Positions 4,019-56,112 of a DNA stretch of 64,000 nt are shown one piece after another. Location: assembly GCA_964512925.1 (NCBI GenBank), contig CAZEKH010000001.1, positions 136,226-200,225 on the forward strand. The letters run 5' to 3'. Made by a program: the position numbers and the translations under genes. The number at the start of each line of letters is the position of its first letter. Position 1 is the first letter of the stretch. The DNA is from an uncultured Candidatus Saccharibacteria bacterium. GTDB lineage: Bacteria > Patescibacteriota > Doudnabacteria > UBA920. Under the pieces are notes generated by a model that was not told where the DNA came from, did no database searches, and was given only the letters and a program-made list of their open reading frames with translations.

Positions 4019-6280
4019 TTATTTTGGCCATTTGGATACCATCAGGAGTCCGCCTTTGTCTAGGAGCTTGTGTTCGTTTAAGATTTGCCAGATGTGTTCG
4101 GTAACAAAAGGCATAAAGGGGTGGAGGAGTCTGAGAATAGTATCGAGTATATAGTATAAAGTATTTAGCGTGTTGAGTTTTAATGCTTCGTCGGCCAGTT
4201 GAATTTTACTGGCTTCAATATAGACGTCTGCAAATTCGTGCCAGACAAAGTGATAGATTTCTTGTGCAGCTTCGTGCAGACGGAAGTTCTCCAGGTGTTC
4301 GGTGGAAGATTTAATAAGATTTTCTAATTTGGAGAGGATGTCTTTGTCGGCATCGGTGATTGGCTGCACCCCCTCCCTTAATCCCTCCCCCATCTGATGG
4401 GAGAGGGAAATGGGCGAGGGAGTGTTCTCCTCAGCAGGGGAGGGTAAAGAGGTGAGAATGAAGCGAGCAATATTCCAAAGCTTGTTGGCAAAATGCTTCA
4501 TACCTTTGATTTTGTCTTCAGCAAGTGGAATGTCGTTGCCGGCGGCTGAGGAAAATATTAAAGCAAATCTTAAGGCATCGGTCCCATAGGTATCTATAAC
4601 AGCCAAAGGGTCTATGACATTGCCTTTGGACTTGGACATTTTTTGTCTGTCTTTGTCGCGTACTAGTCCGTGAAGGTAGACTTTTTGAAAAGGAGCTTTG
4701 TTGGTGCGGTAGTAGGAAAGCATAACCATCCTGGCTACCCAAAAGAAAAGTATGTCCCAACCAGTTTCCATAACTTGGGTTGGAAAGAAACTTTTAAAAT
4801 CCAACCTCTCCCCATCCCTCCCCTCAGAAGGGGAGGGGGAAGTAGAAGATTTGCGCTTTTGGTCATTTGCCATAAGTGTGGCAAAAGGCCACTGGCCGCT
4901 AGAAAACCAAGTGTCAAAAGTATCTGGGTCTTGAACTAAAACTTTAGAGTTACATTTTGGGCAAATTGTCTCGGTGTTATTTGTGTCAATTATAAATTCG
5001 GGGCAATTTTGGCAATATTTTGCCGGGATGGATATTCCCCACCAAATCTGTCTTGAGATTGGCCAGTCACGGATGTTTTCCATCCAGTGGCGGAAGATTT
5101 TTTCAAATTTTTCTGTGACAATTTCTACTTCTTTTTTATCCAGTGCTTGTATAGCCATATCGCGCAAACTCGGTCTCCCATCTTTGAGCGGTTTGGTCAT
5201 AGCTATATACCACTGCTGAACAATCTGGGGTTCGATGATTCTGCTGCACTTGTAGCAAGTTTGGACATTGTGTTTATAGTTTTCGTCTATTTTTTCCAAA
5301 AGCCCTTTTTCTTTGAGTTTTTCTACTATTTTTGGTCTGGCTTCTTCAGTGCGCATCCCAGCAAATTCTCCGGCGATAGGTAGAAGCTTGCCGCGAAGAT
5401 CTATAATCTGTTCAAAGTCCAAGTTATGACGTTTAGCAATGTCAAAGTCAACAGCATCGTGCCAGGGGGTGATGGTCATAACTCCACTGCCAAACTCCAT
5501 ATCCACTGCCTTGTCTTTTATGATTGTTGCCGTAATTTTGCCATTGATCCACTCCACATTTTCCAGTTTTTGTCCGTGCTTATACTGCTCGTATCTTTTG
5601 TCGTCCGGATGCATAACTACGTACTTGTCGCCGAACTTAGTTTCAGGACGCGAGGTGCCTATGGTAAAAGGTCCGTATTTAAAATAGTAAAAAGGCTCTG
5701 TGCGTTCTTCGTATTTGGTTTCAAGATCTGCAAGTCCAGTTTGGTGTTTGCTGCACCAGTTGCAAATCCGGCCATCGCGGTAGACAAGGCCGTCTTCGTG
5801 CATTTTTTTAAAAGTGTCGTAAACAACTTTGACTATTTCTGGGTCCAAGGTAAAAATATTTCTACTCCAGTCACAGGAAGCCCCCAGACGTTTTAAGCTG
5901 TTTTCTGTTATGTGTTTGTTGCCCTGTACAAAGTCCCAAATTTCTTTGTAAAAGTCTTCGCGCTGCATCCCAAAACGGCTGCGACCTTCTTTTTCCAGCT
6001 TTTTTTCGTATACCACTTGGGTTTCAAAACCCGCGTGGTCAGTGCCAGGCTGCCACAGGGTTTTAAACCCTTGCATCCTTTTGTAGCGTATTAAAATGTC
6101 TTCAATTGTTACAAATAAAGCGTGCCCTACATGCATAGGCGCATTGGCATTTGGCGGGGGCATTATAATTGTGTAAGGCTCGCCCGTTAGGTTGTCCGGG
6201 TTAAAGTACCCAGAGTCTTCCCACATTTTGTAAATTTTGTCCTCTACTTCGTTTGCGTTGTAAGATTTTTGTAATTCCAT
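4019..6280 (-). CDS. valS: valine--tRNA ligase (class I aaRS); likely start is the internal Met MELQKSYN, the ORF track extends to 6355
   Basis: HIGH-type motif PPPNANAPMHVGHA and KMSKS motif KMSKSKGN. N-terminal YNANEVEDKIYKMWE. Carries two in-frame low-complexity insertions derived from palindromic repeats. Confidence 0.75.
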   Translation of the reverse strand: MELQKSYNANEVEDKIYKMWEDSGYFNPDNLTGEPYTIIMPPPNANAPMHVGHALFVTIEDILIRYKRMQGFKTLWQPGTDHAGFETQVVYEKKLEKEGRSRFGMQREDFYKEIWDFVQGNKHITENSLKRLGASCDWSRNIFTLDPEIVKVVYDTFKKMHEDGLVYRDGRICNWCSKHQTGLADLETKYEERTEPFYYFKYGPFTIGTSRPETKFGDKYVVMHPDDKRYEQYKHGQKLENVEWINGKITATIIKDKAVDMEFGSGVMTITPWHDAVDFDIAKRHNLDFEQIIDLRGKLLPIAGEFAGMRTEEARPKIVEKLKEKGLLEKIDENYKHNVQTCYKCSRIIEPQIVQQWYIAMTKPLKDGRPSLRDMAIQALDKKEVEIVTEKFEKIFRHWMENIRDWPISRQIWWGISIPAKYCQNCPEFIIDTNNTETICPKCNSKVLVQDPDTFDTWFSSGQWPFATLMANDQKRKSSTSPSPSEGRDGERLDFKSFFPTQVMETGWDILFFWVARMVMLSYYRTNKAPFQKVYLHGLVRDKDRQKMSKSKGNVIDPLAVIDTYGTDALRFALIFSSAAGNDIPLAEDKIKGMKHFANKLWNIARFILTSLPSPAEENTPSPISLSHQMGEGLREGVQPITDADKDILSKLENLIKSSTEHLENFRLHEAAQEIYHFVWHEFADVYIEASKIQLADEALKLNTLNTLYYILDTILRLLHPFMPFVTEHIWQILNEHKLLDKGGLLMVSKWPK

Positions 6281-8004: not shown

Positions 8005-9105
8005 TTAAATTTGCAAATTGCTGTCCGCTGAAAGTTTTTTGTAGGAGATGGGTTTAAACCCGCCTGCTAGTTTAACCGCTGCGGCAATACCGATCATCTC
8101 TGCGTTGTCGCCGGTTAAGTGTAGGGGAGCGGGGAAGAATTTTAGTCCATTATTTTTAGACATTATCTCCAGTCTCTGCCTAAGCGCGCGGTTAGCGGCA
8201 ACTCCGCCTGACAGCGAGATGGATTTAGCGCCAAACTCTTTGGCTGCGCGCAGGGTTTTTTGGGTGAGAACATCTACAACCGCTTCCTGGAAGGAAGCGC
8301 AAATGTCAGAGGTAGCGTTTAGTGGGTAGCGTTTAGTGGGTAGGGACTGCAGGTGATAGAGGACAGCTGTTTTAAGACCGGAGAAGGAAAAGTTGTAGTT
8401 TTTGTGGGTGAGCATCGGGCGCGGGAAATTTATTGCCTTAGGGTCGCCTTTTTCAGCTAACTTGGAAACTTCCGGTCCGCCCGGGTAGGGAAGTTTGAAC
8501 ATCTTTGCCACTTTGTCAAAACATTCGCCCGCCGCGTCGTCCACGGTTTCGCCGATCACTTTATAGTTATGTAAATCTTTCATCAAAACCAGCATAGTGT
8601 GGCCGCCGGAAACTATGAGAGCAATGGATGGAAACACCCCCTCCCTTAATCCCTCCCCCGTTTTGCGGGAGAGGGAAGTGGAGAATGGTGAATATAGGTG
8701 GCCAAGCATATGGTTAATCGGGATCAGCGGTTTTTTTGTTGCCAGAGAAAGGGCTTTGGCAAACTCTACCCCTACGGCCAAAGAGACTATGAGCCCTGGG
8801 CCTTGGGTGGGGGCAATATAATCCAAATTTTCAATTTTTAATTTTGCAATTTTCAATGCCGACTCTACAACCGGGCGGATATATCTGATGTGAGCGCGGG
8901 CTGCGGCTTCCGGTACTACCCCGCCCATTTTGGAGTGGATTTTAATTTGGGATTTTACGACCGCAGACAGGATTTTTATTTCTGGCAATTTTTTATTAGT
9001 CCCCCTCTGCTGGTGAGGAGAGGGGTTAGGGGAGAGGTTACAGCTTAAAACCGCAGCAGCAGTTTCGTCGCAGGAAGTTTCAATGGCAAGAATTTTTTGC
9101 ATCAT
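8005..9105 (-). CDS. tsaD: tRNA N6-adenosine threonylcarbamoyltransferase TsaD (Kae1/Gcp family)
   Basis: N-terminal ILAIETSCDETAAAV, GGVAANRALR and C-terminal GDNAEMIG motifs. Two in-frame repeat-derived insertions (GEGLREGV; NLSPNPSPHQQRG). Confidence 0.85.
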   Translation of the reverse strand: MMQKILAIETSCDETAAAVLSCNLSPNPSPHQQRGTNKKLPEIKILSAVVKSQIKIHSKMGGVVPEAAARAHIRYIRPVVESALKIAKLKIENLDYIAPTQGPGLIVSLAVGVEFAKALSLATKKPLIPINHMLGHLYSPFSTSLSRKTGEGLREGVFPSIALIVSGGHTMLVLMKDLHNYKVIGETVDDAAGECFDKVAKMFKLPYPGGPEVSKLAEKGDPKAINFPRPMLTHKNYNFSFSGLKTAVLYHLQSLPTKRYPLNATSDICASFQEAVVDVLTQKTLRAAKEFGAKSISLSGGVAANRALRQRLEIMSKNNGLKFFPAPLHLTGDNAEMIGIAAAVKLAGGFKPISYKKLSADSNLQI

Positions 9106-28404: not shown

Positions 28405-28494
28405 ATAAATCGCTGATCTCTCGCGGATTAAAACGCTGATCTCATGCGGATCTGCGTGGGGTCCGCGTTAATTTCTGCGTGTATTCCGCGTTAA

Positions 28495-28983
28495 TTATTT
28501 GGTGAGGTCTTCAGTTAGCGCTGCCTCTATCTTTTCTTCCAGGGCTTTTTCGTCTATGTCTTCCAGCTTAACCTGAGGCTTTGCTTTTTTCTCCACCGGA
28601 GCTGAGCTTGGCTTTTCCAGTTCAGAAGCCGGGATTTTGCGCTTGGAATTTAAGGCGCTTTGGGCTTTCCTGTCCTTTTCCGCGCGTTCCAAGTACTCAT
28701 CCAGGTTGACCAGGATATAGCGGATAATGTTTTGGTTCTGGGAGCGGATTTTCGCGTCCAAACCGTTGACCTTTTTTCCTTCCATACTGAAATTCACCAC
28801 AACATAATGTCCGTTGCGGGTTTTCTTGATGGGATAGGCAAGTTTCTTTTTGCCTAACTGGGTTTCTACAACTTCTTCTCCGCCAAATTCTTTGACAAAG
28901 TCTAAAACTTGAGCGGTGATGCCAGGAACGTCAGTGTCTGCTACGTGGCTTCCGAGCAGATACATAAGTTCATATTTTGGCAT
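28495..28983 (-). CDS. rpsF: 30S ribosomal protein S6 with acidic C-terminal extension
   Basis: MPKYELMYLL...YVVVNFSMEG. Conserved rpsF-ssb-rpsR order. Confidence 0.9.
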   Translation of the reverse strand: MPKYELMYLLGSHVADTDVPGITAQVLDFVKEFGGEEVVETQLGKKKLAYPIKKTRNGHYVVVNFSMEGKKVNGLDAKIRSQNQNIIRYILVNLDEYLERAEKDRKAQSALNSKRKIPASELEKPSSAPVEKKAKPQVKLEDIDEKALEEKIEAALTEDLTK

Positions 28984-29684: not shown

Positions 29685-29782
29685 ATTTCCTCCCCTTAGT
29701 GTAAGGGGAGGCTGGGAGGGGATATGAAGTTTTCAGTATCACCCCCTGCCCCCTCTTATGTTAAGAGGGGGGAAAATATTTG
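29685..29782. repeat. m2-m1 junction of the CCTCCCCTTA..TAAGGGGAGG / ATCACCCCC..CCCCCTCTTA..TAAGAGGGGG repeat family
   Basis: Same modules flank the DUF559 gene at 40400-41005, in the opposite order. Confidence 0.6.
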
Positions 29783-32479: not shown

Positions 32480-33940
32480 ATGCAAAACATAGATACTTCC
32501 ATTTTCAAAGCCTATGACATAAGGGGTATATATCCAACACAGATAGATGCGGATTTGGTATATAAAATTGGTCAGGCGTATTTGCAGTTTCTGCAAACGC
32601 GGAATTACGCTGACCAAGACGCGGACTTACGGAGAAAGTTTAAAATTGTAGTGGGACACGATATGCGCCTGTCTGGGGAGGAGTTTTCTGAAAGCGCAAT
32701 CCGCGCTTTGACAGACGCGGGAGCGGATGTGGTGGATATCGGCCTGGTTTCAACTGATCAGTTGTACTTTGCTGCCGCGACTTTGGACGTTGATGGCGGT
32801 ATTCAGATCACTGCCAGCCACAACCCGAAAGAATACGGCGGGATGAAATTGGTTAGGGAAAAAGGCCGGCCGATTTCGGGGGATAGCGGAATTTATCAGA
32901 TTCGGGATTTGGTAATAAGTAATCAGAAATCAGTTATCAGTGATCAGAGAGGAAGAGTGGAAAAGAAGGATATTACTGAAGAGTATTATAAACATATACT
33001 AAAAACTTTTGAAATAAGTAAATTTAAAAAATTCCGTATAGTTGCCAATGCCAACTTTGGGATGGCTAATCCCGCCATCGAAAAGCTTAAAACTCTTTTG
33101 CCAATTGAGTTTGTGGAAGTTTTAAATGGCCATTTGGACGGCAGTTTCCCTAAAGGACCTTCGGATCCACTACTTCACTCTAACCGTGAAGAAACTATAG
33201 AAGCCATAAAAAAGCACAAACCGGATTTGGGCGTGGCTTGGGACGGGGACGCTGACCGTTGTTTCTTTTTTGATGAGAACGGAAAATTTGTCACACCCGC
33301 GTACATAAACGCGATTTTAGCAGAATACTATTGCAAAAAAAATCCAGGCTGCAAGATACTTCACGATACCAGGGTTGTAAGAGTGATTGATTATGCCGTA
33401 GAAAAAAACGGGGGAGTGAGTGTCATGAACAAAGCCGGCCACTCGTTCATAAAAGAGCGGATGATCAAGGACGACATTGTTTTTGGCAATGAAACTTCGG
33501 GGCACTATTATTTCAAGGACAATTTTTATCTGGATAACGGCCTAATGCCGTTTTTGGCAATACTGTCAATTTTGTCCGAATATATATCTCCCTCATCCTT
33601 TGCGGGAGACCTGCCCGCCGTGGGTGTTCGGGCGGGGGGTCAGGGAGAGGTCGTGCTGTTATCCGATATTCTACAGCCTTTACGCGAGAAGTTTTTTATC
33701 TCCGAAGAGATAAATTTTAAAGTCAAAGATGCCAATCAGGTTATTGAAAGCCTCAGGCAAAAATACCAGGAAGCCAAAATAGATGAAATAGACGGTTTGG
33801 ATTTTAATTTCCCATCCTGGCGCTTCAATGTGCGCAAAAGCAATACAGAACCGCTTTTAAGGCTCAACTTGGAAGCTAATAGCCAAAAAGAGCTTGAGGA
33901 AAAACAAAAAGAAATTAGCGATTTAATTTTAGCCATATGA
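32480..33940 (+). CDS. phosphomannomutase/phosphoglucomutase (alpha-D-phosphohexomutase family)
   Basis: Active-site TASHNPKEYGGMK, metal-binding DGDADR. In-frame palindromic-repeat insertion at 33590-33650 (SFAGDLPAVGVRAGGQGEVV). Confidence 0.85.
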   Translation: MQNIDTSIFKAYDIRGIYPTQIDADLVYKIGQAYLQFLQTRNYADQDADLRRKFKIVVGHDMRLSGEEFSESAIRALTDAGADVVDIGLVSTDQLYFAAATLDVDGGIQITASHNPKEYGGMKLVREKGRPISGDSGIYQIRDLVISNQKSVISDQRGRVEKKDITEEYYKHILKTFEISKFKKFRIVANANFGMANPAIEKLKTLLPIEFVEVLNGHLDGSFPKGPSDPLLHSNREETIEAIKKHKPDLGVAWDGDADRCFFFDENGKFVTPAYINAILAEYYCKKNPGCKILHDTRVVRVIDYAVEKNGGVSVMNKAGHSFIKERMIKDDIVFGNETSGHYYFKDNFYLDNGLMPFLAILSILSEYISPSSFAGDLPAVGVRAGGQGEVVLLSDILQPLREKFFISEEINFKVKDANQVIESLRQKYQEAKIDEIDGLDFNFPSWRFNVRKSNTEPLLRLNLEANSQKELEEKQKEISDLILAI

Positions 33941-40399: not shown

Positions 40400-41005
40400 A
40401 AATATCACCCCCCAGCCCCCTCTTACTTTAAGAGGGGGAGGAGAAAAAAAGGCTCTAATTATTTTATAGAAATGATATTGTTCCGTCCCTCCCCTTAAGA
40501 TAAGGGGAGGTTAGGAGGGGATACTTTTTAGCGCATTTATTGTTTGCAGAATTTTTTCTCCTACGCCATCAATATTTTTAAATACATCAGTATTGTAAAA
40601 TCTTAATACAATAATATTTTGTTTATCTAAAAATTTAGTGCGGATTTCATCATTGATTTTATTTTGTATCTCTAAATGCTGTCCGCCGTCTAACTCAATA
40701 GCAAGTCTTAATTTTGAACAATAAAAATCCAAAATATAATTACCCACGCTATATTGCCGCGTAAATTTATAACCCGTTTGTCTGTTCCTTAAAATCTGCC
40801 AGAGTTTGTATTCTGCATCTGTTTGGTTGTTGCGAAGATTTTTTCTAAGTTGCTTTAACTGTGGGTGTTGGTAAAACATAAAGTATGAGTGAATATCACC
40901 CCCCAGCCCCCTCTCCTGCCAAAGGCGGGCAAGTATTTTAAGAGGGGGAGGTTATTTTTGCATTATCCCTCCCCTTAAGATAAGGGGAGGTTAGGAGGGG
41001 ATAGT
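40400..41005 (-). mobile_element. DUF559 endonuclease cassette bounded by ~110-bp direct repeats
   Basis: Direct repeats 40400-40510 and 40893-41005 (m1 ATCACCCCCCAGCCCCCTCT...TAAGAGGGGGAGG; m2 TCCCTCCCCTTAAGATAAGGGGAGGTTAGGAGGGGATA) flank the 369-bp ORF. Confidence 0.4.
40511..40879 (-). CDS. DUF559 endonuclease-domain protein (Vsr/restriction-endonuclease-like fold)
   Basis: YILDFYCSKLRLAIELDGGQH motif typical of DUF559. Confidence 0.75.
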   Translation of the reverse strand: MFYQHPQLKQLRKNLRNNQTDAEYKLWQILRNRQTGYKFTRQYSVGNYILDFYCSKLRLAIELDGGQHLEIQNKINDEIRTKFLDKQNIIVLRFYNTDVFKNIDGVGEKILQTINALKSIPS

Positions 41006-41013
41006 GTTTCGAA

Positions 41014-42975
41014 TTATAAACTCTTTTTTATAGTCTCTGCCAGTTTTTGCCCCACCACTTCAGCCAGTTCTTCCAATGATGAGTTTTTTATTTGGCTGAC
41101 TGTGCCGAATTTGGTTTTTAAGAGTTTTTTGGTTTTAGGCCCCACGCCCGGTATTTCGTCCAGCGCAGATTTAACGGCTTGCTTGCTTCTTAAGCTTCGG
41201 TGGAAAGTTATGCCAAACCTGTGGGCTTCGTCGCGAAGTCTTTGCAACATCTGAAGCCCGGGCTGATCGTGGCTTAAAACTATGGGAGTGGGATTGCCCG
41301 GTAAAAATATTTCCTCGATGCGTTTGGCCAAGCCGATCAAGGGTATAGGGCTAAGGGCTAAGGGTATAGACTCTATTTTTTCCAGCGCAGCGGATAGTTG
41401 GCCTTTGCCCCCGTCTATCACTATCAAATCCGGTATGGGCCAGAACTCCCCCGGCTTCGCCACCCCCTCTTTGGCAAAGAGGGGGGAGGGGGAGTTCGTC
41501 TGATTTACTGATCCACTGACCAAATGTCCCGACTTGGCTAGTCTTCTGCTTAGCATTTCCTGCATCATCTGGAAATCGTCCGGCGTGTCTTTTGTGCGGA
41601 TTTTAAATTTTCGGTATTCGGATTTTTTAGGCATTCCGCCCTCAAACACCACCATACTCCCGACCGCGTTAGTGCCCTGGGTGTTGGAGATGTCGTAACA
41701 TTCTATCCGCCTTGGGATATTTTTCAAATTCAAAACTTCTTTGAGTTGCTCCAATCCTGCATTTATCCTATCTAGCATAAAGGCTTCGGAAGACTGTTTT
41801 TGTTTGAGAAATTCCAAAGCGTTTTCTTCGGCTATTTTCCAGAGTTTTTGCGGTTGTTTTTGAATTGCTAAATTGATTTTAATAGTTTTGCCTGAGCGTT
41901 CTTTTAGTAAAGCTTCTAGAAGGTTTTGATTTTCAATTTTAGTTCCAGTATAAATTTTTTTCGGAAAATCCGAAGTCTTACTATAATAGTCCTCTAAAAA
42001 CCTTTGCAGCCCAGTTTCTTCCCCCCTTAAGATAAGGGGGGACTGAGGGGGGTTATGATGCAGAGTGGATTTGTAGACATTTGTAAATTTGTCTTTCATT
42101 TGTATATTTGAATTTTTGTAGACAAAATTTTCCTTATCTGCCAGTTTTCCTTGCCTGACTTTCAGTAGACTAAAAGAGATCTCCCCATTTGCTTGGCTTT
42201 GCCCGACAACATCCCAGGAAACTTTTTTAGGCATAATCACATTTTGCTTTTGTTCCAGAGATTCTAGGGATTTGATTTGGTTTCTAAGGCGCGCGGCTTT
42301 TTCAAAAAGTTTTTTAGCCGCGGCTTTTTGCATTTCTCTGGCAATTTCTTTTTTTACGCCTATTATGTCGCCTTGTAAAAATTTTTTAATTTTATCGAGA
42401 TGTTTTGCGTATTCTTCAAGGGTTATTGAGCCTATGCACACACCAGGGCAGCGGTGCAGATGAAAGTAAAAGCAAGGTTTTTGGCCAATTTTCTCATTGG
42501 CGCAATAGGAAAAGATGTAGCGGACAGTTTTAAGAATCTCTTTGGCTTTGTAAGCGGCGGAGTAGGGACCGAAAGAAGTAGGGCTAAGGGCTAAGGGTTT
42601 AGGGTGTAGGGATAGTTCAATATTTCTGGAAATGGTTATTTGGGGTATTTGTGTTGAGTAGTCAATGACAATAAACGCATAGCTCTTGTCGTCTTTTTGG
42701 AGGATGTTGTATTTGGGGCGGTATTTTTGGATCAGGGTTTGTTCCAGGTACAGGCTTTCAAGTTCAGTTGAAACTACTGTAAAGTCTAAGCTTTTTGCTT
42801 CCTGCATCAAGAAAGGAATTTGAGGTCTTTCATCTGTGCCACGGAAATACTGGCTAACTCGGTTTTTCAGGTCTTTGGCTTTACCCACATACAAAACCGC
42901 CCCGTCTTGGTCTTTGTAAATATAGACCCCGGGTTTTTTGGGGAGGCTTGGGAGGGTGAAACTTATTTTTTTCAT
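41014..42975 (-). CDS. uvrC: excinuclease ABC subunit C; start at internal Met MKKISF (the ORF track's upstream extension translates an intergenic hairpin)
   Basis: N-terminal GIY-YIG (GVYIYKDQDGAVLYVGKAKDLKNR), UvrBC interaction region, RNase-H-like endonuclease, C-terminal HhH. At least four in-frame repeat-derived insertions. Confidence 0.9.
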   Translation of the reverse strand: MKKISFTLPSLPKKPGVYIYKDQDGAVLYVGKAKDLKNRVSQYFRGTDERPQIPFLMQEAKSLDFTVVSTELESLYLEQTLIQKYRPKYNILQKDDKSYAFIVIDYSTQIPQITISRNIELSLHPKPLALSPTSFGPYSAAYKAKEILKTVRYIFSYCANEKIGQKPCFYFHLHRCPGVCIGSITLEEYAKHLDKIKKFLQGDIIGVKKEIAREMQKAAAKKLFEKAARLRNQIKSLESLEQKQNVIMPKKVSWDVVGQSQANGEISFSLLKVRQGKLADKENFVYKNSNIQMKDKFTNVYKSTLHHNPPQSPLILRGEETGLQRFLEDYYSKTSDFPKKIYTGTKIENQNLLEALLKERSGKTIKINLAIQKQPQKLWKIAEENALEFLKQKQSSEAFMLDRINAGLEQLKEVLNLKNIPRRIECYDISNTQGTNAVGSMVVFEGGMPKKSEYRKFKIRTKDTPDDFQMMQEMLSRRLAKSGHLVSGSVNQTNSPSPLFAKEGVAKPGEFWPIPDLIVIDGGKGQLSAALEKIESIPLALSPIPLIGLAKRIEEIFLPGNPTPIVLSHDQPGLQMLQRLRDEAHRFGITFHRSLRSKQAVKSALDEIPGVGPKTKKLLKTKFGTVSQIKNSSLEELAEVVGQKLAETIKKSL

Positions 42976-43103
42976 TTGTAGGTTTGAATTTGAGGTCATT
43001 GTCATTCCCGTGAAAACGGGAATCTTAATGAGTTTATTATACTTGTCCGTAACGCAGGTTGACAAATAAATTTGTAAATAGTATACAAAAGCGGGGAGGA
43101 TGG

Positions 43104-43677: not shown

Positions 43678-46584
43678 ATGGCTGATATCATTTCTATCCG
43701 CGGGGCGCGGATGCATAACTTAAAAAATATTGATGTAGATTTGCCTAGAAACAAGCTGGTGGTTTTAACCGGCCTGTCAGGCAGCGGCAAGTCGTCTTTG
43801 GCTTTTGACACCATCTATGCCGAAGGGCAGAGAAGGTATGTGGAAAGTTTGTCAGCTTATGCCAGACAGTTCATTGGTCTTATGGACAAGCCGGACGTGG
43901 ACAAAATAGAAGGTTTGTCCCCGGCAATTTCCATTGACCAAAAGTCCGCATCGCACAACCCTCGCTCTACTGTCGGAACCGTAACTGAAATTTATGACTA
44001 TATGAGGCTACTTTGGGCTCGTGTGGGAGTGCCTCATTGTCCGGTCTGCGGGAAAAAAATCCAAGGTCAAACTATCCAGGCAATGGCTGAGCAGCTTTTG
44101 GGTTTGGAAAAAGGCACAAGGCTGATGCTTTTGGCGCCTTTTATTAAAGATCAAAAAGGCGAACACCGGCATATATTTGAACAGATCAAAAAAGCCGGTT
44201 TTGCCCGCGTGCGTGTGGATGGCACAGTGATGGACTTAAACGAAGCCCAGGGTTTAAGCCTGGACAAGCAAAAAAAACATAATATAGAAGTGGTGGTGGA
44301 CCGCGTGGTGGTAGATCCGGCTGAACGGGGCAGACTCTCCGAGAGTCTGGAAAAGGCTGCGGATTTGGGCGATGGGATAGTTATAGCTTTGCGGGTTGCT
44401 GAAGAAACAAAACCTGACAGCAAGACGCGATCAACCTCTCCCCAGCCCTCCCCAAGTCTTGGGGAGGGAGGCTATAAGGAAATATTGCTCTCCCAAAAAT
44501 TCGCTTGTCCGGACGGACACATTCAGCTGTCTGAGCTGGACCCGAGGGATTTTTCTTTTAACAGCCCGCACGGAGCTTGTTCGGAGTGTAAGGGTTTGGG
44601 CACTAAGCTGACGGTGGAGCCGGATTTGGTTTTACCCAACCACCGGCTGACTTTGGCTGAAGGCGCTATCCGTCCCTGGAGCAAGACGACTTCCAGACAG
44701 TCCTGGTACTCGCGGATGCTGGAAGCCGTGGCCAAAGAATACGGTTTTTCCGTACACACTCCGGTGAAAGATTTGCCAAAAAAATATATTGATATTGTTT
44801 TGCACGGTTCAGGCGAGAAAAAAATCCGCATCTCCGGCGAGTTTAGGAGCGGCGACGGGGAGTTTGAGATGAACACGGTTTTTGAAGGCGTGGTGCCAAA
44901 CCTGGAGAGGCGGTACCGCGAGACTGACTCGGAATATATGCGCAGCGAAATAGAAAATTATATGCGCGTGCGCCAGTGTCAGGTTTGCCACGGCAAGCGC
45001 CTTAGGCTGGAAGTTTTGGCTGTGACCGTAGGCGGACAGGGGATAGTGGAGGTATCTGCTATGACTATAGACAAAGCCGCGGATTTTTTTGAAAAACTTT
45101 CCAAATCTTTGAGCGCCAAAGACAATCAGATTGCCAAACAAATTTTAAAGGAAATTTCCGCGCGTCTGTCTTTTTTGCTCAATGTTGGTTTGTCGTATTT
45201 GTCTTTGGACAGAACTGCGGATACTTTGTCCGGTGGGGAAGCCCAGCGCATCCGTTTGGCGACCCAGATCGGCAGCGGCCTGACCGGAGTTTTGTATATA
45301 TTGGACGAGCCATCTATCGGCCTGCATCAGCGCGACAACGGTAGACTCCTTAAAACATTGAAAGATTTAAGAGATTTGGGCAATACGGTGATAGTTGTAG
45401 AGCACGATGAGGAAACCATTCGCGAGGCGGATTGGGTGGTGGACATCGGACCAGGAGCCGGCAAGCACGGAGGCGAGCTGGTGGCGGAAGGTAAACCTTT
45501 GGATATTGAAAAAAATCCGAAAAGCATCACCGGGCAGTATTTGTCAGGAAAAGAATACATAGAAGTGCCGAAAAAAAGACGGCACGGCAACGGTAAAAAT
45601 ATTTCAGTTGTGGAAGCTTCTGAGTTTAACCTGAAAAATGTTACAGCCCAGATCCCGCTCGGCAAATTTGTCTGCGTAACCGGGGTGTCAGGTTCCGGCA
45701 AATCTACATTGATTTCTGACATTTTAGCCAGAGCGTTAAACAAACATTTTTGGGACAGCAAGGACGAACCAGGCAAGCATAAAAAGATCACGGGACTTGA
45801 ACACCTAGACAAAGTCATCAGCATTGACCAAAGCCCCATAGGCAGGACTCCGAGGTCAAACCCGGCTACTTACACCGGGCTGTTTACGCCGATCCGGGAG
45901 ATTTTTGCCGAAACCCGCGAAGCCAAGATGCGCGGCTATCAGGCTGGCAGGTTTAGTTTCAACGTCAAAGGCGGTCGTTGTGAGAAATGCGCCGGGGACG
46001 GGGTTTTGAAAGTCGAGATGAATTTTTTACCCGATGTCTATGTAACCTGCGAAGAGTGCAACGGCAAAAGGTATAACCGCCAGGCTTTGGAGATCCACTA
46101 TAAAGAAAAAACCATTTCCGATGTTTTGGAGATGACAGTTGACGAAGCAAAAACTTTTTTTGCAGCCGTGCCTGCCTTGCACAAAAAACTGGAAGTCTTG
46201 TCCCAGGTGGGCTTGGGCTATATGCGCCTGGGCCAGAACGCCACGACTTTGTCCGGCGGGGAAGCTCAGAGGATCAAACTTGCAACCGAACTGTCGCGCG
46301 CGTCTACCGGCCGCACTCTTTACCTTTTAGACGAGCCAACTACGGGCTTACATTTTGCGGACGTCAAACGTTTGATCCACGTTTTAAACAAACTGGTAGA
46401 CAAGGGCAACACTGTGGTGGTCATAGAACACAATCTGGATATGATCAAAACCGCGGATTGGCTTTTGGATATGGGTCCGGACGGGGGAGACAAGGGCGGA
46501 ACTATAGTTGCCGAAGGCACACCCGAAGATGTGGCAAAAGTCAAAGTTAGCTTTACCGGCCAATACCTAAAAAAGATTTTATAA
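43678..46584 (+). CDS. uvrA: excinuclease ABC subunit A
   Basis: Two ABC ATPase modules ([12 protein letters not shown]; [11 protein letters not shown]), zinc fingers and signature motifs. In-frame repeat insertion at 44430-44480 ([17 protein letters not shown]). Confidence 0.95.
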
Positions 46585-52142: not shown

Positions 52143-52265
52143 TGCCCCTCTCCGAGCACGGAGACCTGCCCGCCGTGGGCGTTCGGGCGGGGGGTTAGGG
52201 TGAGGTAACAGTGTTTGAATATTAAATAAGCTTAAATTTTATTACCATCGCTTAAACCTCACCCC
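52142..52265. repeat. composite repeat including a 75-bp MITE-like element (GGTGAGGTAACAG...TTAAACCTCACC)
   Basis: Near-identical copy at 52870-52990. Related copies at 48610-48683 and 58930-59005. Confidence 0.7.
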
Positions 52266-55795: not shown

Positions 55796-56112
55796 ATATG
55801 CTTGTCATTCCCTTGGCAAAGGGAATCTTGTACCCTCTCCCTCTCCGAGAGACGGGGATCTGCCCGCCTTGGGCGTTCGGGTGGGGGTAGGGGTGAGGTT
55901 ACGGATTTGATAAAATTAAAGATATTTAAATATGTAATATTAACCCCTGGATCCCGGATATCCCGCGAAGCGGGATTCCGGGATGACAGCAAAAATTTTT
56001 TGGAAAGATTGAATTTTGAACATTGAATCAAGATATTTCTAAAAAACCAACCGCCTTTACAAAAGGCGGATATAAAATTATAATTAAGCCATAAATATTA
56101 AATCATTAAAAT

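Follow-up and report, generated by a model that had tools for sequence, protein, structure and literature searches.

Repeat DNA read in frame in four loops of UvrC in a Doudnabacteria genome

Described repeat systems and the uvrC repeats

Repeats that are translated inside conserved bacterial genes have been described in Rickettsia, where, according to the summary of a study from 2000 in PMC10969869, dispersed palindromes (Rickettsia palindromic elements, RPEs) lie in frame in unrelated housekeeping genes. These elements leave the host gene intact, and the peptide that they add is regarded as fitting the protein fold (PMC10969869). Here we describe four segments of repeat DNA, designated sites A to D from the N to the C terminus, in the uvrC gene of an uncultured Candidatus Saccharibacteria bacterium (GTDB lineage Patescibacteriota; Doudnabacteria; UBA920). 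The gene lies in a stretch of 64,000 nucleotides, hereafter the window (assembly GCA_964512925.1, contig CAZEKH010000001.1, positions 136,226 to 200,225). The segments are DNA-level repeats absorbed into the uvrC frame, not UvrC sequence. We consider it likely (a probability of about 0.8) that they are neutral or selfish repeats, which selection has let persist in open frames and in loops that tolerate them. Two kinds of repeat are found in the gene: heptanucleotide tandem arrays, which are abundant in the genome and in its relatives, and short, C-tailed, GC-rich hairpins.

Judged by analogy, RPEs are the closest known case. As with RPEs, the repeat families found in uvrC also occur outside the gene, including between genes, and the segments are predicted to sit in fold-compatible surface loops. 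The segments of sites B and C are likewise missing from most orthologs, whereas at sites A and D other repeats fill most orthologs, for a net gain of 3-8 amino acids. RPEs are about 150 bp long, fall into ten families and are found in Rickettsia, whereas the uvrC elements measure 28-52 nt and are carried by a member of the Patescibacteria (candidate phyla radiation, CPR). Unlike the RPE case, two unrelated repeat types share one gene and the same loops are recolonised in different lineages. Since size and host differ, the uvrC repeats are an analogue of RPEs rather than members of that group, and the likeness is one of behaviour. Literature searches combining CPR bacteria with palindromic repeats in coding regions returned nothing relevant.

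The heptamer arrays have counterparts in the G-quadruplex (G4)-forming heptamers GGGNATC of Xanthomonas and GGGGA(C/T)T of Nostoc, which are reported as under-represented within coding sequence (Rehm et al. 2015, PMC4692102); that paper also cites the heptameric STRR repeats of cyanobacteria. The arrays described here resemble these repeats in their 7-nt unit, their G3 tract, the presence of at least four tracts and a genome-wide distribution in several phyla. The unit is however GGGCTAA and not GGGNATC or GGGGA(C/T)T, and the string GGGCTAA is absent from PMC4692102. Moreover, the present heptamers are translated inside conserved genes, and in relatives most of the heptamers that fill these loops are poor in G.

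Repetitive extragenic palindromic (REP) sequences are short GC-rich hairpins, present in many copies per genome, extragenic by definition and marked by GTAG or CGTC tags. The REP-associated tyrosine transposase (RAYT) is a Y1 transposase of the IS200/IS605 type, and its gene is bracketed by REP copies with their tails towards the gene. REPs, REPINs and RAYTs were reportedly studied by Bertels and Rainey in 2011 and by Di Nocera et al. in 2013. The tailed hairpins of the window are like REPs in being short, GC-rich palindromes of many copies that bracket one gene with their tails inward. They differ in carrying C-rich tails (ATCACCCCCC, ACCTCTCCCC) without a GTAG or CGTC tag and in being often translated, whereas REPs are extragenic; the bracketed gene encodes a DUF559 protein (PF04480) and not a Y1 transposase. 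A further lead, likened by description, is the small dispersed repeats (SDR) of Nostoc punctiforme, which Elhai et al. are said to have described in 2008 as hairpin-forming sequences of 20-30 nt in a genome rich in heptameric tandem repeats. The hairpins described here are also very small, dispersed and hosted by a heptamer-rich genome, but in another phylum.

Four repeat-encoded segments in an intact UvrC

The long minus-strand open reading frame (ORF) at 41014..43065 encodes UvrC. Its product scores above the cut-offs of two NCBIfam equivalogs (TIGR00194, 499.5 versus 285.45; NF001824, 476.9 versus 451), the order of its Pfam domains is canonical (GIY-YIG 15-90, UVR 208-239, PF22920 254-393, PF08459 412-589, HhH 604-653), and solved UvrC fragments in the PDB match its N- and C-terminal halves. 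In an alignment of 120 UvrC sequences (the query and 119 orthologs), residues R39, E78 and N90 of the GIY-YIG domain and D428, D521 and H585 of the YDISN, VIDGG and DEAHRF motifs are invariant columns. Going by these motifs, we infer that they are equivalent to the published catalytic residues of T. maritima UvrC.

The coding sequence (41014..42975, minus strand, 653 aa, start ATG 42975) has an intact reading frame. A protein that is 100% identical over the whole query, all four segments included, has been deposited independently at NCBI. The nearest other orthologs are 57-62% identical, the named ones being Candidatus Doudnabacteria or Patescibacteria, and no close relative with empty repeat sites was found among 5.8 billion proteins.

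Loop lengths were measured between invariant anchor residues in the 120 aligned sequences. The site A loop has 18 residues in the query, compared to a minimum, median and maximum of 10, 25 and 89 in the orthologs (38 distinct lengths). The corresponding values are 45 against 17, 28 and 82 for site B (33 lengths), 36 against 8, 28 and 61 for site C (33 lengths) and 22 against 19, 22 and 45 for site D (18 lengths). Seven control segments between invariant UvrC residues show 1-4 length classes, and the four sites are the sole length-variable segments of UvrC. Aligned to the 119 orthologs and to the solved UvrC fragments, none of the four segments is conserved and all of them fall in loops between conserved elements.

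The first-pass annotation of the gene had proposed at least four in-frame insertions. All four segments are indeed in frame, and sites B and C are clear insertions: 108 of the 119 orthologs are shorter than the query at site B and 85 at site C, where about 30 residues of the query stand against 1-7 in solved UvrC chains. At sites A and D the term overstates the case. The loops there are already repeat-encoded in most relatives, the query does not exceed the median at either, and the net gain over the shortest ortholog is 8 residues at A and 3 at D, the solved UvrCs being 1-3 residues shorter at the latter.

In an AlphaFold model of the protein (mean pLDDT, the per-residue confidence score, 84.5), all four sites are predicted as coil between secondary-structure elements. 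The modelled site A loop spans residues 117-132, with a mean pLDDT of 60 for residues 121-130, and values fall below 50 at 292-312 (site B) and 489-506 (site C). The site D loop is modelled confidently, with block means of 82-87.

Sites A and D both contain the 17-mer GGGCTAAGGGCTAAGGG. Exactly two copies of it are present in the window, at 41348-41364 and 42581-42597, both in uvrC on the minus strand, and no third exact site was found in the 64 kb; allowing up to two mismatches gives 3 matches versus 0.04 expected from shuffles. The copies are direct repeats 1233 nt (411 codons) apart. As the first-pass annotation had noticed, one unit is thus used twice in the same frame, and both copies read P-L-A-L-S-P, with LALSP as the shared peptide.

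On the coding strand, both copies form the core of degenerate (CCCTNNN)4-5 arrays. At site A (42577..42611, minus strand) the array consists of CCCTACA, CCCTAAA, CCCTTAG, CCCTTAG and CCCTACT and encodes (L)SLHPKPLALSPT, around residues 121-133, in the loop that follows the GIY-YIG domain and precedes the YFGPY/Cys-rich region. At site D (41337..41364, minus strand) it consists of CCCTTAG, CCCTTAG, CCCTATA and CCCTTGA and encodes PLALSPIPL(I), residues 538-547, where the catalytic RNase H domain (PF08459) has a loop that joins helix 524-536 to strand 546-549. Whatever the frame, tandem CCCTTAG meets a stop once in three units (CCC TTA GCC CTT AGC CCT TAG). Each uvrC array contains exactly two perfect units, with flanking units altered at positions 5-7, because a third unit would give an in-frame TAG.

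The same limit is found far beyond this gene. We scanned 185,579 genomes, one per bacterial species, for a CCCTTAG 19-mer and found 75 genome stretches in Acidobacteriota, Planctomycetota, Proteobacteria, Firmicutes, Bacteroidota and CPR bacteria; two of these stretches are in uvrC and 73 elsewhere. Intergenic arrays are long and perfect; those inside long ORFs contain at most two perfect units and read PLALSP, or GLRAKG on the other strand. An element specific to uvrC, such as a regulatory G4, is ruled out by this distribution.

Within the window, 11 segments have a period of 7 nt, against 0-6 at any other lag. Seven CPR uvrC genes read as DNA contain 17 such lag-7 segments, all at sites A, C or D, and no other periodicity (lags 4-6 and 8-12) was detected in these seven genes. 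The units themselves differ between relatives and include AATTTCC, CAATCCG, GCTACAA and CCCTCTA, among others. A few distant orthologs also have the peptide LALSP at these sites, but it does not count as conserved protein sequence, because it is carried by the identical DNA repeat and its carriers are scattered on the tree. Common ancestry of the carriers was rejected on a neighbour-joining tree (3 carriers with 3 changes at site A, 8 carriers with 8 changes at site D), which as a deep, single-protein tree is weak evidence.

Heptamers were also observed in other conserved genes. In the window (8311-8343), CTACCCA/CTAAACG repeats encode a loop of TsaD (..LQS-x-DICASFQ..) for which another CPR genome (L044, 7683-7701) has CCCTTAG repeats. 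The same loop is therefore repeat-coded in two genomes and heptamer loops are not peculiar to uvrC. In two further genomes, one from Doudnabacteria and one from Saccharibacteria (L039, 6828-6846; L046, 4359-4377), a CCCTTAG array stands just before a P-loop-like motif (..IVGKPNV..) in ORFs of 416 and 461 aa. Our guess is that these ORFs are EngA/Der, in which case the array would mark another shared insertion site.

Sites B and C are hairpins of two types. Matches to CCCCTC..GAGGGG number 9 in the window versus 0.08 expected and matches to CCCCTT..AAGGGG 4 versus 0.11. The uvrC gene holds one copy of each (41446-41497 and 42018-42056); the two hairpin-family sites first proposed within the gene are real, and the families are far above chance. 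In both types a C-rich tail of 9-10 nt and a spacer of about 3 nt precede a stem with an all-pyrimidine 5' arm; read from the family alignments, the elements end in the C-rich tails ATCACCCCCC, ACCTCTCCCC and ATCCCCTCC. The heptamer arrays, unlike these hairpins, show no RNA folding.

Site B (42018..42056, minus strand) is a type II tailed hairpin, CCCCCCTTATCTTAAGGGGGG plus a C-rich tail, that encodes HNPPQSPLILRGEE (residues 307-320), part of a loop in the first RNase H-like domain (PF22920). The type II family comprises four mutually aligning copies, three of them outside uvrC. The RNA folds at -17.6 kcal/mol (z -2.06). Only one of the six frames of the element is open, and this is the frame used in uvrC; the peptide quoted for it in the first-pass annotation, HHNPPQSPLILRGEE, is in the correct frame.

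Site C (41446..41497, minus strand) is a type I tailed hairpin, with CCCCCTCTTTGCCAAAGAGGGGG nested in CUCCCCC/GGGGGAG. It encodes NSPSPLFAKEGVAKPGE (residues 494-510), part of another loop in the catalytic RNase H domain (PF08459), and folds in the uvrC mRNA at -32.5 kcal/mol (z -3.36). Here the earlier peptide, GFATPSLAKRGEGEF for 41440-41520, came from the wrong strand, having been taken from the plus-strand ORF 41282..41503; the uvrC frame reads NSPSPLFAKEGVAKPGE. This ORF of 73 aa, antisense within uvrC, is open only through the repeat elements and is a likely source of spurious gene calls.

Beyond uvrC, type I and type II hairpins lie at 29692-29772, 40401-40529, 40892-41009, 48438, 49034, 58998 and 59620. 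Some copies of the families lie between genes, and others are read in frame as part of uvrA, ychF, tsaD, ssb, the gene of a class I aminoacyl-tRNA synthetase and a pilin-like gene. For example, a type I hairpin in uvrA (44435..44470, plus strand) encodes 13 residues inside a segment of about 24 aa that has no counterpart in solved UvrA (window 44386-44469, query residues 237-264 versus chain residues 256-259). [quoted passage not shown]

An identical 23-nt sequence, CCCCCTCCCTTAATCCCTCCCCC, is in frame in the aminoacyl-tRNA synthetase gene (4369-4391) and in tsaD (8637-8659), encoding GEGLREGV in both, and both genes hold additional arrays (heptamer, 13-mer and 14-mer) as well as hairpins. Between the ssb ORF and the ORF that follows, the window has two tandem duplications of 23 nt side by side (28406-28496; each in 2 copies with 86% matches).

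In other lineages, composites of type II and type I hairpins fill uvrC site B of two loci (L160 and L161) and site A of one of them (L161). In a third (L003), site B holds a GTCAT-type palindrome that reads VIPAHEPGS.. in frame; it is larger than the members of the GTCATYCCC..GGGRATC family described below and has the same ends. The variety of repeats in uvrC loops across lineages therefore argues for independent colonisation by at least three repeat families. No flanking target-site duplication is recognisable by eye at the four uvrC elements, each of the two hairpin elements being itself a palindrome, and an Rfam search of the window returned two tRNAs only.

Weighing the origin of the loop segments

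How could repeat DNA persist in a repair gene? In the explanation that we favour, neutral or selfish repeats filtered by selection, repeat DNA would arise or land anywhere in the genome, and its survival inside an essential gene would require a frame-keeping length, no stop in the frame used and a tolerant, solvent-exposed loop. UvrC would stay functional and the loops would be passengers. Such a survival filter would account for the four positions, for the single open frame of the site B hairpin and for the two-unit limit of CCCTTAG. The comparisons show that the segments are repeats, that they exceed chance, that they are in frame and placed in loops, and that orthologs lack or replace them; that the loops are neutral, and how the elements spread, we infer.

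The repeats might instead act on uvrC at the DNA or RNA level, an explanation that we find improbable. Conceivably, template-strand G-quadruplexes or the mRNA hairpin of -32.5 kcal/mol tune uvrC expression, or heptamer slippage turns the repair gene off, or recombination between the 17-nt direct repeats does so through an in-frame deletion of 411 codons. The sequence offers some material for each route: the arrays present 4 (41341-41364) and 5 (42581-42611) G3 tracts at 7-nt spacing on the plus (template) strand, as putative G4 runs with GGGTATAGGGCTAAGGGCTAAGGG as a candidate quadruplex sequence; G4 motifs in the window number 11 versus 1.26 expected, with 3 in uvrC; and the two 17-mers are direct repeats in the same frame, 1233 nt apart. 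In Xanthomonas and Nostoc, G-rich heptamers with a preference for four units fold into G4 in vitro (PMC4692102). Yet most heptamers of relatives lack G or C runs (AATTTCC, GCTACAA, CATAATT), and G4 is therefore not a common property of the heptamer loops; as a shared property it is ruled out by the AT-rich heptamers at the same sites. Slippage would also hardly be frequent with only two perfect units, uvrC accounts for just 2 of the 75 stretches with the 19-mer, which is thus not peculiar to the gene, and none of the in-gene hairpins scores as a terminator or is followed by a T run. A separate G4-type motif, GGG(C/T)GTTCGGG(C/T)GGGGG.., has three copies in the window (33622-33645, 52177-52200 and 55871-55893), one of them inside a phosphoglucomutase ORF.

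That the loop peptides are selected for a role in the protein, such as a flexible tether or contact with UvrB or with DNA, with repeat DNA as the raw material, strikes us as quite improbable. The recurrence of PLALSP at two sites in several lineages and the confident modelling of site D (82-87) would fit such a role. However, the peptides at each site are wholly different among relatives and what is common is the 7-nt periodicity of the DNA; identity is found at the nucleotide level, third codon positions included, and the same peptides occur in unrelated proteins (TsaD, the EngA-like ORF and large Planctomycetes ORFs). It is highly improbable that the segments are no more than conserved UvrC sequence, or that assembly or alignment produced them as artefacts: LALSP does stand at matching positions in a few orthologs, but the segments are missing from most orthologs and all solved UvrC chains, the independent, identical protein record holds all four of them, and the repeats recur at many other positions of the window.

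Several points nonetheless weigh against repeat DNA passively accumulating in permissive loops. Since the nearest ortholog is about 60% identical and no relative with empty sites is available, each insertion event is reconstructed from distant comparisons. In addition, site A of the window and of two other loci (L001 and L002) holds one and the same 26-nt core (CCCTAAACCCTTAGCCCTTAGCCCTA), while the conserved 150 nt that adjoin it are only 63-69% identical among the three and third codon positions 34-52%. At site D, the heptamers fall into about seven discrete 'alleles', whose recurrence shows hardly any phylogenetic signal (54 Fitch steps versus 60.9 for permuted labels). Neither the identical core across diverged lineages nor the recurring alleles is obviously predicted by random neutral gain, and plain slippage leaves both unexplained. 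Identical heptamers at identical loops in unrelated lineages hint at targeted or templated array formation over plain slippage.

Elements around uvrC and the DUF559 association

The UvrC N-terminus at ATG 42975 agrees with the ortholog consensus, and the deposited identical protein is 8 residues longer, corresponding to a start at ATG 42999. The first-pass annotation was right to exclude the 5' extension IPVFTGMTMTS from the gene, as the consensus begins at ATG 42975, and right in tracing it to an intergenic hairpin: IPVFTGMT reads from GTCATTCCCGTGAAAACGGGAATC at 43001-43024. This noncoding hairpin (43001..43024, taken on the minus strand with uvrC; RNA fold -12.9 kcal/mol, z -3.98) belongs to the GTCATYCCC..GGGRATC family, which has 5 copies in the window versus 0.00 expected. 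By comparison with the ORF list, the five copies (20197, 31064, 43001, 48542 and 55804) are all plus-strand matches to the family motif and all lie between ORFs. The hairpin probably sits in the 5' leader of uvrC, given a promoter-like TTGTCA-18 nt-TATAAT at 43036..43065 (minus strand), a consensus match only, at 11 of 12 positions. The TTG at 43065, with which the over-long ORF of the ORF track starts, is the start of the -35 box of this promoter-like site.

About 100 nt downstream of uvrC lies a gene (40511..40879, minus strand) for a DUF559 protein with a Vsr-like PD-(D/E)XK endonuclease fold (Pfam PF04480, 1e-32; PDB 3hrl, 2e-20), which is missing between uvrC and secG in related loci. It is bracketed by two composites of type I and type II hairpins. 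One (40892..41009, plus strand) lies directly past the uvrC stop and forms the upstream flank of the DUF559 gene; the other (40401..40529, plus strand) contains the DUF559 stop codon inside its type II copy. The two are direct copies, identical at 23 of 23 positions in repeat D4 and 42 of 44 in repeat D2. The gene itself stands between tailed hairpins in inverted orientation, with a hairpin and a G-rich tail immediately ahead of its ATG. Solo and composite copies of the elements that flank the DUF559 gene are scattered in the genome and lie in frame in uvrC, uvrA and other genes.

We surveyed DUF559 genes at 80 metagenomic loci (L079-L158). GC hairpins with the pyrimidine arm first occur at 5-6.5 per kb within 100 nt upstream of DUF559 and at 9.8 per kb within 50 nt downstream, compared to about 0.1 per kb beyond 300 nt, so that the density at the gene borders is 50-100 times that at 300 nt or more. 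Nearly all hairpins near the borders (134 of 135) have the pyrimidine arm first. A typical locus has a hairpin with a G-rich tail before the ATG and a stop codon inside a C-rich tail plus hairpin, the tails facing inwards. By strict criteria, the upstream hairpin is present at 34 of 62 loci and the downstream one at 29 of 62, and at 15 of 64 loci the two flanks have a direct repeat in common that is exact over 15 nt or more.

What is observed is an association, and mobilisation of the hairpins, their use as targets and mere co-riding are alike compatible with it. We tentatively propose, as a possibility that falls well short of likely, that the tailed hairpins are non-autonomous or target partners of DUF559 genes, in a REP/RAYT-like pairing that would be built on a Vsr-like PD-(D/E)XK nuclease. 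Just downstream of ychF (29692-29772), a type II and a type I hairpin stand side by side, 13 nt apart; the pair resembles a DUF559 cassette without the gene and is a possible non-autonomous form. Literature searches combining DUF559 with repeats found nothing relevant, and the link between DUF559 and hairpins was found in no paper of the library searched.

While the main claim has a precedent in RPEs, a specialist might not expect the DUF559 association or the return of identical heptamers to identical sites. For a CPR/Patescibacteria genome, the result means that a sizeable share of the lineage-specific 'insertions' that lengthen housekeeping proteins and make their alignment harder would be translated repeat DNA and not evolved protein. 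This has consequences for annotation, in the form of false N-terminal extensions and spurious opposite-strand ORFs such as 41282..41503, as well as for alignment trimming in the phylogenomics of deep lineages and for structure prediction. The loops also provide a natural map of where UvrC is permissive, with four sites that accept from a few to about 80 extra residues across lineages. If the DUF559 link is functional, it would offer a candidate enzyme for small hairpin repeats whose mobility has been unexplained; and if the partner model is true, a widespread domain would gain a function and the widespread repeats coding for 'PSP..GEG' an origin.

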